Notes: generated from the letters alone by a model not told the origin. Positions 3,035 through 4,214 are shown, counted from the first letter of the stretch. The stretch is DNA of 4,214 nucleotides from a virus (IMGVR_UViG_2565956624_000005:1-4214); one strand, 5' to 3'. Made by a program: numbers and translations.

Positions 3035-3219
3035 ACGCCACAATTCAAACGATACCAGAGCTTCTTATCCAGACACGAGGCAATCAGACCGAAGTGGCGA
3101 GGATGCTTTCCTGTGCAAGAGGAACAGTGCTCAAGTACAACCGAGACAGCAAAGGCGAGCGTCATGTAATAGTTAACGGCGTCCTGATGGTCAAACAGGG
3201 AAAGAGGGGAAGACGATGA
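3031..3219 (+). CDS. ninH: NinH family protein (small putative DNA-binding protein)
   Basis: ORF 3031..3219 (62 aa). The core TIPELLIQTRGNQTEVARMLSCARGTVLKY…VIVNGVLMV resembles remembered lambda NinH. ATGA overlap at both ends. Confidence 0.8.
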   Translation: MNATIQTIPELLIQTRGNQTEVARMLSCARGTVLKYNRDSKGERHVIVNGVLMVKQGKRGRR

Positions 3220-3734
3220 GCATAAGAGAACTAAACCTCACCAAAGAACAGCACGATTGGCTGAATGGCTGGCTTGAACTGTGGGGCGCATGGGTTTATT
3301 CAGGCCGCCTGGAAAAGCGCATGAGCAGCGTAATAGCGAAATTCATGGAGAGCGTAGAGCCGGGAAGAGTTATGACAAGGCCAATGTGTAATGATGATGA
3401 TGGAATGTTGATTTCTCAGGTCGTCGATTCCGTCATGTGCATTGACAAGAAAGCCTTTGGCATCCTCCTCAGCTACTACGCTCATGGTTCATCTAAGCGA
3501 GCAATTGCATCCTACTATCACGCGACTGCAAAGCCACGCAAGATGTGTGGACGTGGTGGCGAGGGATGGAGAAAACCTTCACTGGCAACCTGTAGAAACG
3601 AAATTGACGACATCCTGAAAGCGTCATTATTTGTTTTATACCAGCCAATGCAAAATGCTTTCAAAATGCGTAAACGTGTTGAGAAAGTTAAGCATATTGC
3701 TGTTAAAAGCCTTGACATGCAATTAGCCATTTAG
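3216..3734 (+). CDS. Q: Late-gene antitermination protein Q (non-lambda type, Q21/Q82-like family)
   Basis: ORF 3216..3734 (172 aa). Last gene of the nin operon, immediately upstream of a candidate late promoter, tRNAs and holin. GAGGGG at 3204-3209, 6 nt upstream. No similarity to remembered lambda Q; family assignment is by position and general resemblance and needs an HMM search. Confidence 0.7.
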   Translation: MSIRELNLTKEQHDWLNGWLELWGAWVYSGRLEKRMSSVIAKFMESVEPGRVMTRPMCNDDDGMLISQVVDSVMCIDKKAFGILLSYYAHGSSKRAIASYYHATAKPRKMCGRGGEGWRKPSLATCRNEIDDILKASLFVLYQPMQNAFKMRKRVEKVKHIAVKSLDMQLAI

Positions 3735-3741
3735 CCATAAT
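3712..3741 (+). promoter_or_regulatory. Candidate sigma70 late promoter (pR'-like): -35 TTGACA, 18-nt spacer, -10 CATAAT
   Basis: TTGACA at 3712-3717 and CATAAT at 3736-3741. The -35 and spacer lie inside the last codons of Q; the position between Q and the lysis genes is the canonical pR' location. Confidence 0.45.
3723..3738 (+). repeat. Perfect tandem direct repeat TTAGCCAT x2 within the promoter spacer/-10 region; candidate Q-binding element
   Basis: TTAGCCAT at 3723-3730 and again at 3731-3738, followed by AATTAG. Read directly from the sequence; the functional assignment is inference. Confidence 0.3.
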
Positions 3742-3751
3742 TAGAAGGTAA

Positions 3752-3797
3752 GCTGCCGTTAGTGACTCTTAAGTTGCAACGGTGGCTTTTTTTATTT
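3752..3797 (+). terminator. Putative intrinsic terminator (tR'-like): imperfect hairpin followed by a T-run
   Basis: GCTGCCGTT (3752-3760) can pair with AACGGTGGC (3778-3786), 9 bp including two G.U pairs, 17-nt loop, then TTTTTTTATTT (3787-3797). The large loop lowers confidence. Confidence 0.45.
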
Positions 3798-3872
3798 GGG
3801 TCAGTCGTATAAAGGTCATTACGGAAGGCTGTTAACCTTCTTATCGTGGTTCGAGTCCACGCTGTCCCGCCA
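3798..3872 (+). tRNA. tRNA-Asn (anticodon GUU)
   Basis: Manual cloverleaf: acceptor GGGTCAG / CTGTCCC (one T.T mismatch), 3-bp D stem with GG-containing loop, anticodon stem GAAGG/CCTTC with loop CTGTTAA (U33, GUU, A37), 4-nt variable loop, T arm CGTGG-TTCGAGT-CCACG, discriminator G, encoded CCA. Anticodon loop and T loop match remembered E. coli tRNA-Asn. Confidence 0.6.
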
Positions 3873-3877
3873 AATAT

Positions 3878-3953
3878 GCTGGTTTAGCTCCAATGGTAGA
3901 GCAGTCGCCTTGTAAGCGAATGGGTAGCGGTTCAAGTCCGTTAACCAGCACCA
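3878..3953 (+). tRNA. tRNA-Thr (anticodon UGU)
   Basis: Manual cloverleaf: perfect acceptor GCTGGTT / AACCAGC, U8, D stem GCTC/GAGC with loop CAATGGTA, anticodon stem (4 bp plus G.A) with loop CTTGTAA (U33, UGU, A37), 5-nt variable loop, T arm AGCGG-TTCAAGT-CCGTT, discriminator A, encoded CCA. Confidence 0.7.
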
Positions 3954-4069
3954 TAACTGAGCCGTAGCCACTGACTATCCTGAACTCATCAGCGATAGTT
4001 ACGCTGCGGCCTTCTTTTCCCCTTCCCAATATAAGAACTACGCAATCCGTTACTGGCGGAGGCGTTGCT

Positions 4070-4214
4070 ATGAAATCAATGGACAAAATCTCAACTGGCA
4101 TTGCTTACGGAACATCCGCTGGTAGTGCGGGATACTGGTTTTTGCAGTGGTTGGATCAGGTCAGTCCGTCACAGTGGGCTGCGATTGGAGTGCTTGGAAG
4201 CCTTGTGTTGGGTT
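4070..4214 (+). CDS. S: Holin, phage 21 S-type pinholin (class II), dual-start motif; 3' end beyond window
   Basis: Not in the ORF track because no stop lies within the window. From ATG 4070: [48 protein letters not shown]…, matching the remembered S21 sequence. GGAGG at 4058-4062, 7 nt upstream. Second in-frame ATG at 4079. Confidence 0.85.

Follow-up and report, generated by a model that had tools for sequence, protein, structure and literature searches.

Genes for tRNA-Asn (anticodon GUU) and tRNA-Thr (anticodon UGU) at the start of the late operon are a long-known and widely annotated feature of lambdoid phages. Annotation of the pair goes back to the work on phages 21 and Sf6, and as a sequence feature the copy described here is ordinary, already known and nothing new. 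The late regulatory region of phage 21 was reportedly described by Guo, Kainz and Roberts in 1991. In the GenBank record of that phage (OL657228.1) the late promoter pR', the Q-binding element, the transcription start site, a pause element, the terminator tR', tRNA-Asn and tRNA-Thr (CPT_21_64 and CPT_21_65) and the holin gene S21 are all marked, and in Sf6, SfI, BTP1 and P22-like phages the two tRNA genes stand between the gene for a Q homologue and the holin. The description of SfI places the pair downstream of Q and mentions 'one or both' of the genes in Sf6, ST64T, PS3 and p21 (PMC3636060), and the papers on epsilon34 and phage L report likewise for P22-like phages (PMC2629481, PMC8022706), phage L itself having Asn(GUU) with Leu(UAA) at the equivalent site (PMC8022706). 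A different cargo is found in the Stx phage 933W, where ileZ-argN-argO occupies the same slot, downstream of Q, pR' and the terminator and ahead of the first late cargo; that trio has an annotated putative promoter of its own, pT, and is followed by stx, not directly by a holin.

Two nucleases that cut tRNAs provide the other point of comparison. The Old protein of phage P2, the effector of the classic P2-lambda interference, is a Toprim nuclease directed at the anticodon stem (PMC12445682). Its cuts fall behind C28 and C40, within paired CNG motifs of that stem, and it is lethal through removal of the anticodon arm from host tRNA-Thr(UGU) (PMC12445682). Phage tRNA-Thr(UGU) genes rescue cells from Old toxicity, and the tRNA-Thr of phage 21 (tRNAThr21) protects Old+ Gam+ cells (Govande et al. 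2025, PMC12445682). This molecule resists Old in vitro, site 1 being almost fully resistant, a property ascribed to the C28U/G42A changes together with a shortened stem; altering the motif without shortening the stem gave no protection of tRNA-ThrU (PMC12445682). [quoted passage not shown] The context of the cut is U36-A-A-U39-C40/N41, and the change U39A abolishes cleavage of tRNA-Lys (PMC12409363). Variants of tRNA-Lys, tRNA-Thr and tRNA-Asn encoded by phage T5 neutralise AriB (PMC11464382, PMC12409363), and full rescue needs all three (PMC12409363).

Layout of the late leader and its tRNA genes

The stretch analysed here (the window, 4,214 nucleotides in all) is 100% identical to positions 3225-7438 of E. 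coli FDAARGOS_1288 (NZ_CP070007.1), where a lambdoid prophage with myovirus-like tail genes and gtrABC lies between ybhC and ybhB and where RefSeq has already annotated both tRNAs. Pfam matches in the upstream part outline a nin region with a PAPS-reductase-like protein, NinE, an unassigned 133-aa ORF, NinF, a Rha/KilAC antirepressor, YbcO (DUF1364), RusA and NinH, and then a late antiterminator Q of 172 aa. The Q gene (3216-3734, plus strand; PF06530 Phage_antitermQ, E = 1.5e-25) is of the Sf6 type, is labelled 'antiterminator Q family protein' in NZ_CP070007.1, and is matched in position by the Q gene of phage 21 and by gene 59 of Sf6. A late promoter pR' is predicted on the plus strand at 3712-3741, with a -35 element TTGACA (3712-3717), an 18-nt spacer and a -10 element CATAAT (3736-3741) that together gave 11 of 12 matches in the promoter scan. 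Column by column, this segment corresponds to pR' and the Q-binding element as marked in phage 21, and it is the same as the annotated late promoter of Sf6; by this homology it probably acts as the late promoter of the present prophage. At the site of the Q-binding element of phage 21, with its repeats ATTGAGCA/AATGAGCA, the window carries instead the direct repeat AATTAGCC/ATTTAGCC at 3721-3736.

The intrinsic terminator tR' (3750-3797, plus strand) consists of a stem-loop at 3750-3788 and a U-run that extends to 3797. It was passed over by the loop rule of the terminator scan and was confirmed by folding, which gave -20.2 kcal/mol (z = -4.79) with none of 200 shuffled sequences as stable; in sequence it equals the annotated terminators of Sf6 and of phage 21, for which the GenBank record cites PMID 1704887. 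RNA polymerase modified by Q is expected to read through it, and tRNA-Asn begins immediately behind the U-run, 3797 being the last base of the one and 3798 the first of the other.

Exactly two tRNA genes were found in the 4,214-nt window by ARAGORN, both on the plus strand and both also found with Rfam: tRNA-Asn(GUU) at 3798-3872 (75 nt) and tRNA-Thr(UGU) at 3878-3953 (76 nt). The Rfam tRNA model, RF00005, was covered in full (1-71) by each, with 55.3 bits (E = 2e-10) for tRNA-Asn and 61.5 bits (E = 5e-12) for tRNA-Thr, far above the gathering score of 29, and by cloverleaf and score both are bacterial elongator tRNAs. No RNA family besides tRNA was matched by an Rfam scan of the whole window at E <= 1, which together with the ARAGORN result rules out a third tRNA, or the remnant of one, between tRNA-Thr and the holin; the conserved sequence in that interval folds simply as a long hairpin. 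The original prediction had been made from the sequence alone; its two genes, their anticodons and their coordinates were recovered unchanged by both programs, and the encoded CCA ends and the discriminators that it gave, G for Asn and A for Thr, can be read in the sequence.

The acceptor stem of tRNA-Asn is GGGUCAG/CUGUCCC, with U4.U69 as a non-standard pair and a second one at U13.U22; the anticodon stem is GAAGG/CCUUC (GCGGA/UCCGU in the host), the anticodon loop CUGUUAA, the variable loop 4 nt long and the T loop UUCGAGU. In tRNA-Thr the acceptor stem is GCUGGUU/AACCAGC, the anticodon stem GUCGC/GCGAA (ACUGA/UCAGU in the host), the anticodon loop CUUGUAA, the variable loop 5 nt long and the T loop UUCAAGU; here a G27.A43 mismatch reduces the anticodon stem to 4 bp, and U28/A42 are present. 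Host and phage anticodon stems thus have almost nothing in common, for Asn and Thr alike, and overall tRNA-Asn is 63% identical to E. coli asnT and tRNA-Thr 72% identical to thrU, values that rule out recent capture of a host gene. The parts that govern aminoacylation and decoding are those of the host. Asparaginyl-tRNA synthetase recognises G34, U35, U36 and G73, and threonyl-tRNA synthetase G1-C72, C2-G71, G35 and U36; every one of these elements is present in the respective phage sequence, the discriminators G73 and A73 are those of asnT and thrU, and both anticodon loops equal the host loops. Because host loops and identity elements are retained, normal decoding of AAC/AAU and of ACA is to be expected.

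Beyond the tRNAs lies a long hairpin (3961-4010, plus strand; -28.2 kcal/mol, z = -7.13) followed by a U-rich run. It is kept 3' of tRNA-Thr in phage 21, in Sf6 and in 117 IMG/VR copies among the matches listed, and it accompanies the tRNA module irrespective of the lysis cassette downstream; it may serve in 3' processing or RNA stability, or as a second terminator. The protein-coding genes of the late operon begin with that for an S21-type class II holin (a pinholin), of which the window holds the 5' part (4070-4214, plus strand; PF04971 'Bacteriophage P21 holin S', E = 1.4e-21) before its end truncates the gene. The holin has dual starts at 4070 and 4079 (MKSM...), is annotated as a class II holin in NZ_CP070007.1 and aligns with S21-71/S21-68 of phage 21. 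Promoter scan, folding and Pfam thus agree with the predicted position of the tRNA genes between a Q-dependent pR'/tR' and the holin.

With identical tRNAs and tR', a Q gene upstream and a holin downstream, the locus is a late-leader tRNA module of the phage 21/Sf6 type. Phage 21 and Sf6 each carry tRNAs 100% identical to the two in the window, and in both phages the layout between the transcription start and the end of the tRNAs matches that of the window base for base. Phage 21 shares in addition tR', the hairpin behind tRNA-Thr and the S21 pinholin, with 97.5% identity between the transcription start and the start of the holin. Upstream of the start site, however, the window is of the Sf6 type and not of the 21 type, both in the promoter and Q-binding element and in the Q gene, which encodes 172 aa as against 162 aa in phage 21; the remainder of the prophage, with its RusA/Ant-type nin region, myovirus-like tail genes and gtrABC, is also unlike phage 21. 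Sf6, SfI, BTP1 and the P22-like phages agree with the window in tRNAs, Q type, pR' and tR'. Sf6 differs in having a holin of the lambda S type in place of the S21 pinholin, and its homology to the window stops past the module hairpin, at about 4015.

The pair had been singled out in the original prediction for not being the familiar ileZ-argN-argO set. The cargo does indeed differ from the Ile, Arg and Arg tRNAs of 933W, as the GUU and UGU anticodons assigned by ARAGORN in the window do not belong to that trio, but there is nothing unusual in it, since phage 21, Sf6, SfI and BTP1 carry the identical pair: Asn/Thr is an equally established alternative cargo.

Distribution, mosaicism and conservation of the module

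The segment matches 90 phage records (phage 21, SfI, Sf6, BTP1, SPN9CC, HK446, Kapi1 and others), most of which annotate tRNA-Asn followed by tRNA-Thr, and the 156-base pair of genes occurs in 369 of 5426 complete E. coli genomes (about 7%). A scan of IMG/VR with the D-arm pattern returned at least 119 contigs. A search of one genome per species added four matches, in Escherichia sp., E. albertii, Shimwellia and a Segatella MAG that is probably contaminated; the spread of these four is uninformative, because the element varies from strain to strain. Among the matches listed, the Asn-Thr pair is present at 108 of the resulting 123 loci (119 IMG/VR contigs and four species-representative genomes).

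The module is facultative and mosaic. In HK629, HK75 and CUS-3 the Q-pR'-tR' segment agrees with that of the window as far as about 3792-3798, after which the sequences diverge and no tRNAs follow, and among the IMG/VR matches listed about 74 of 119 contigs with an identical tR' carry the pair while about 43 have no tRNA. The 3' boundary of the module lies just beyond the 3961-4010 hairpin. A variant seen at about 12 loci and in E. albertii consists of tRNA-Asn, a chimeric tRNA-Thr and a tRNA-Gly(UCC); in the chimera the 5' acceptor strand and the D arm are those of the phage, and they are joined to an anticodon arm and a T arm that resemble thrU, with G42U/U43C.

Such a distribution would fit tRNAs that are neutral passengers, a mosaic 'moron' or a decaying remnant that spreads with the late leader, or a module whose main effect is on RNA processing, by punctuation of the late transcript or, jointly with the 3' hairpin, by stabilisation of the lysis mRNA. 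The loci with the same tR' and no tRNAs (HK629, HK75, CUS-3 and the roughly 43 in IMG/VR) fit this explanation, as do the conserved hairpin that rides along in the module and the two U.U mismatches of tRNA-Asn. Set against this, the Rfam scores of both genes lie well beyond the tRNA gathering threshold, and no identity element is missing from either, nor the encoded CCA. In 89 homologous IMG/VR copies among the matches listed, per-site diversity is 0.009 for tRNA-Asn and 0.008 for tRNA-Thr, compared with 0.035 in the hairpin region and 0.11 in the 5-nt spacer, so that the tRNAs are about four-fold less diverse than neighbouring non-coding sequence; the anticodon arm of tRNA-Thr is invariant in the same 89 copies. 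Identical copies make up 101 of 111 for tRNA-Thr and 88 of 121 for tRNA-Asn among the matches listed, and they stand in differing Q, holin and virion backgrounds and in different host genera. These values suggest purifying selection on both tRNAs, the copies not being independent samples. Decoding of ACA in vivo by the identical tRNA-Thr of phage 21 is, moreover, implied by its rescue of cells from Old (PMC12445682). A neutral passenger, or an element that acts mainly in RNA processing, is a highly improbable description of the pair.

Codon demand in the prophage and its relatives

Another explanation is that the tRNAs do nothing more than raise the pools of ACA and Asn readers for ACA-rich late structural genes, with nucleases playing no part. 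For threonine the demand is evident, since ACA accounts for 34-37% of Thr codons in the prophage (17-21 per 1000) against 8% (4.7 per 1000) in 19 flanking host genes, an enrichment of about four-fold, and in K-12 thrU is the sole gene with a UGU anticodon, as is also stated in PMC12445682. SfI has the same bias towards ACA (17.3 versus 7.1) and no bias for Asn (PMC3636060). An argument from Asn supply has been made for phage L, on the ground of AAC codons (24 of 25) in its coat gene (PMC8022706). In the present prophage, however, Asn usage is only slightly above that of the host, which has four asn genes in K-12.

A comparison between relatives speaks against codon supply as the whole explanation. 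When 33 contigs that carry the pair are set beside 21 that lack it, all with the same tR', ACA makes up 23.0% and 23.5% of Thr codons in late ORFs (p = 0.6) and Asn codons number 42.6 and 41.4 per 1000 (p = 0.46), the ORFs having been called heuristically and the loci being phylogenetically non-independent. Codon demand thus does not predict which phages carry the module, because ACA and Asn usage are equal with and without the pair; the enrichment in ACA is general to phages sharing this tR'. A further point is that over-expression of host thrU gave little or no protection from Old, whereas the phage tRNA-Thr was protective (PMC12445682). Matching of late-gene codon demand, one of the two roles raised in the original prediction, is therefore borne out for ACA, but it fails for Asn and does not separate carriers from non-carriers. 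Supply is a plausible benefit of tRNA-Thr, yet it explains neither the tRNA-Asn nor the distribution of the module, and we regard it as unlikely to be the sole reason for the pair.

tRNA-cleaving nucleases and the role of the pair

The other role raised in the original prediction was replacement of host tRNAs cleaved by anticodon nucleases, with colicin E5 acting on tRNA-Asn as the named example. In kind this idea is right, in that replacement has already been demonstrated for tRNA-Thr against P2 Old (PMC12445682), and it is the choice of nuclease that does not stand. Under the colicin reading tRNA-Asn would be a replacement or decoy against E5-type nucleases that cut within the anticodon loop. 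Colicin E5 does cleave tRNA-Asn, along with the tRNAs for Tyr, His and Asp, and additional copies of a target could buffer partial cleavage. Its recognition, however, is of Y-Q34-U35 in the anticodon loop, and resistance of this type would call for a loop that differs from the host target; the loop is CUGUUAA in both the phage and the host tRNA-Asn, with no resistance determinant visible, and E5 should cut the phage molecule equally well because its loop is identical to that of asnT. Colicin E5 is, moreover, a cell-killing bacteriocin, and phage infection is not known to trigger it. The tRNA-Asn would in any case be produced only late in infection, and the partner tRNA-Thr(UGU) is no target of E5. 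Taken together these points leave the colicin reading with next to no credibility. HepS of Gifsy-1, which acts mainly on Thr(GGU) and secondarily on Thr(UGU), was set aside as the relevant nuclease as well, being another loop anticodon nuclease for which the phage loop equals the host loop.

Nucleases that cut the anticodon stem present a different case, as it is there that the phage tRNAs depart from those of the host. The window tRNA-Thr reads U28 C29 G30 / C40 G41 A42, where host thrU reads C28 U29 G30 / C40 A41 G42 within a 5-bp stem, and it therefore combines the altered CNG motif with the shortened anticodon stem that characterise Old-resistant tRNA-Thr. With U28/A42 and G27.A43 it is the same molecule as tRNAThr21, a match that rests on the description in the text of PMC12445682 and on the GenBank record of phage 21. 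A role for tRNA-Thr in defence against Old has accordingly been shown in the literature for a sequence identical to the present one. In that study tRNAThr21 was supplied from a plasmid and assayed in vitro, without the neighbouring tRNA-Asn. A limit on this role is that Old was found to cleave many tRNAs, the Thr tRNAs giving partial rescue only (PMC12445682).

Our preferred interpretation, to which we give a probability of roughly 60%, is that the locus is a phage 21/Sf6-type late-leader tRNA module whose selected role is the upkeep of translation in the face of OLD-family Toprim tRNases. Two functional elongator tRNA genes would thus stand at the extreme 5' end of the late operon. Polymerase would start at pR' and, without Q, halt at tR', one base ahead of tRNA-Asn; with Q it would read through, and RNase P and the 3' processing enzymes of the host would excise both tRNAs, which would need no addition of CCA because CCA is encoded. 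The timing speaks against a role in defence, since Old is triggered by early functions (Gam) and the tRNAs, being located behind tR', would appear only after Q has been made. Q-dependent expression and processing of this kind would be expected in the present prophage from the arrangement of its leader. An indirect hint of expression comes from the transcriptome of a BTP1 lysogen, where the highly expressed prophage genes were listed with the two tRNA genes left aside (PMC7067206). Late-gene translation would in this way be sustained when host tRNA-Thr(UGU), and probably also tRNA-Asn(GUU), is destroyed by the tRNases of competing elements, such as Old of P2 and possibly AriB of PARIS. A secondary benefit would be a larger pool of the ACA reader, which is scarce and encoded by a single gene, for phage genes rich in ACA. 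Correctly read, the locus is of value as an example of phage tRNAs that replace host tRNAs destroyed by defence nucleases, and its tRNA-Thr is among the few tRNAs of temperate phages with direct experimental support for such a role.

Host tRNA-Asn(GUU) is among the slower substrates of Old that were followed (PMC12445682). It carries a CNG pair, C28 G29 G30 / C40 C41 G42, which in the phage molecule has become A28 A29 G30 / C40 U41 U42, while the phage anticodon stem keeps its full 5 bp. Whether this tRNA would resist Old is uncertain, because the stem is of full length and a change of the motif alone failed for tRNA-ThrU. Nor is the loss of CNG, or of U39, by itself evidence of selection, because at 63% and 72% identity to the host genes unrelated stems would likewise lose these features by chance. 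For tRNA-Asn a role in defence is only hypothetical.

It is possible, and we put it forward tentatively, that Asn and Thr form a matched two-tRNA kit with which lambdoid phages counter the OLD-family Toprim tRNases of P2/P4-type elements. If so, tRNA-Asn should also be resistant to the nuclease and should have a measurable share in escape, and possession of the pair would account for the ability of some lambdoid phages, and not of others, to grow on P2 lysogens or on PARIS+ strains.

For PARIS the closest parallel is phage T5, which is virulent and includes a tRNA-Lys(UUU) variant in its set, whereas the window belongs to a temperate lambdoid prophage that shares the UGU and GUU anticodons with T5 and has no tRNA-Lys. 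ARAGORN found no tRNA-Lys in the window, and none was present at the module site in 153 related loci among the matches listed; with tRNA-Lys(UUU), the primary target of AriB, absent, the module cannot by itself defeat PARIS as characterised. The window tRNAs are only 62-66% identical to those of T5. At the AriB cleavage site itself there is a resemblance, in that positions 36-41 read UAACCU in the window tRNA-Asn and UAAGCG in tRNA-Thr, so that 39 and 41 are altered in both; host tRNA-Asn has the context UAAUC/C, with U39 and C41. The corresponding T5 sequences are UAAGCA for Thr, UAAGUU for Asn and UAAACC for Lys, with position 39 altered in all three and position 41 also in Asn and Lys, and from these positions resistance of the window tRNA-Thr to AriB appears plausible.

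Boundaries of the tRNA module

Phages HK629, HK75 and CUS-3 have near-identical versions of the Q gene, late promoter pR′ (3712–3741) and late-leader terminator tR′ (3750–3797) found in the window, with homology ending exactly where tRNA-Asn(GUU) begins (~3792–3798), and none of the three carries tRNA genes at the equivalent junction. Among the matches listed, 42 IMG/VR loci likewise have an identical tR′ yet no tRNA. The pair of tRNA-Asn (3798–3872) and tRNA-Thr(UGU) (3878–3953) is therefore polymorphic by insertion or deletion, and its 5′ limit falls sharply at the U-run of the terminator.

The 3′ edge of the mobile module is marked by a very stable hairpin at 3961–4010, directly 3′ of tRNA-Thr (−28.2 kcal/mol, z = −7.1), which phage 21, Sf6 and at least ~117 IMG/VR copies conserve alongside the two tRNA genes. 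A U-rich run follows it only in the context of an S21-type holin. Possible roles for the hairpin are in 3′ processing or stability, or as a second terminator.

Variant tRNA genes

A variant module, in the order tRNA-Asn, chimeric tRNA-Thr, tRNA-Gly(UCC), is present in an E. albertii locus (L012, 5400–5800 region) and in IMG/VR loci L018, L036, L065, L078 and L085. In the chimeric gene, the D arm and the 5′ strand of the acceptor stem are those of the phage, fused to an anticodon arm and T arm resembling those of thrU, the host tRNA-Thr(UGU) gene; the phage tRNA-Thr seems to have recombined with a tRNA gene similar to thrU. Within the thrU-like part, G42U and U43C leave a 3-bp anticodon stem, and most chimeric copies in the variant modules drew no tRNA call from ARAGORN. 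In IMG/VR locus L021 (~13,400–13,480), a single copy of the Asn gene has the anticodon GAU (U35A) and two further substitutions, for which reason ARAGORN calls it tRNA-Ile; the anticodon may truly have switched, or the change may be an artefact of sequencing or mutation.

The late promoter and nin region

Between the −35 and −10 elements of pR′ lies a direct repeat, AATTAGCC/ATTTAGCC (3721–3736). The Sf6 repeat is identical, whereas in phage 21 the same position is occupied by the Q-binding element ATTGAGCA/AATGAGCA. This difference suggests that the window has a distinct Q/Q-binding-element specificity, coupled to the same downstream tR′ and tRNAs as in phage 21.

Upstream of Q, between NinE and NinF, a plus-strand ORF of 133 amino acids (1100–1501; hypothetical in RefSeq) gave no match in a Pfam search; charged residues are abundant in its C-terminal half, which looks like a coiled-coil. 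The plus-strand gene at 79–924 encodes a PAPS-reductase-family protein (PF01507, E = 4e-8); some relatives have a DNA N-6-adenine methyltransferase in the equivalent nin slot.

The resident prophage

In NZ_CP070007.1 (E. coli FDAARGOS_1288), the prophage containing the window is flanked by ybhC and ybhB, adjoining the bio operon, in the region classically associated with lambda attB. Its early, nin and lysis backbone is lambdoid, but its tail genes are of myovirus type (DUF3383 sheath-like, baseplate J). A gtrABC serotype-conversion cassette is also part of this combination, and the prophage encodes Ral and SieB as well.
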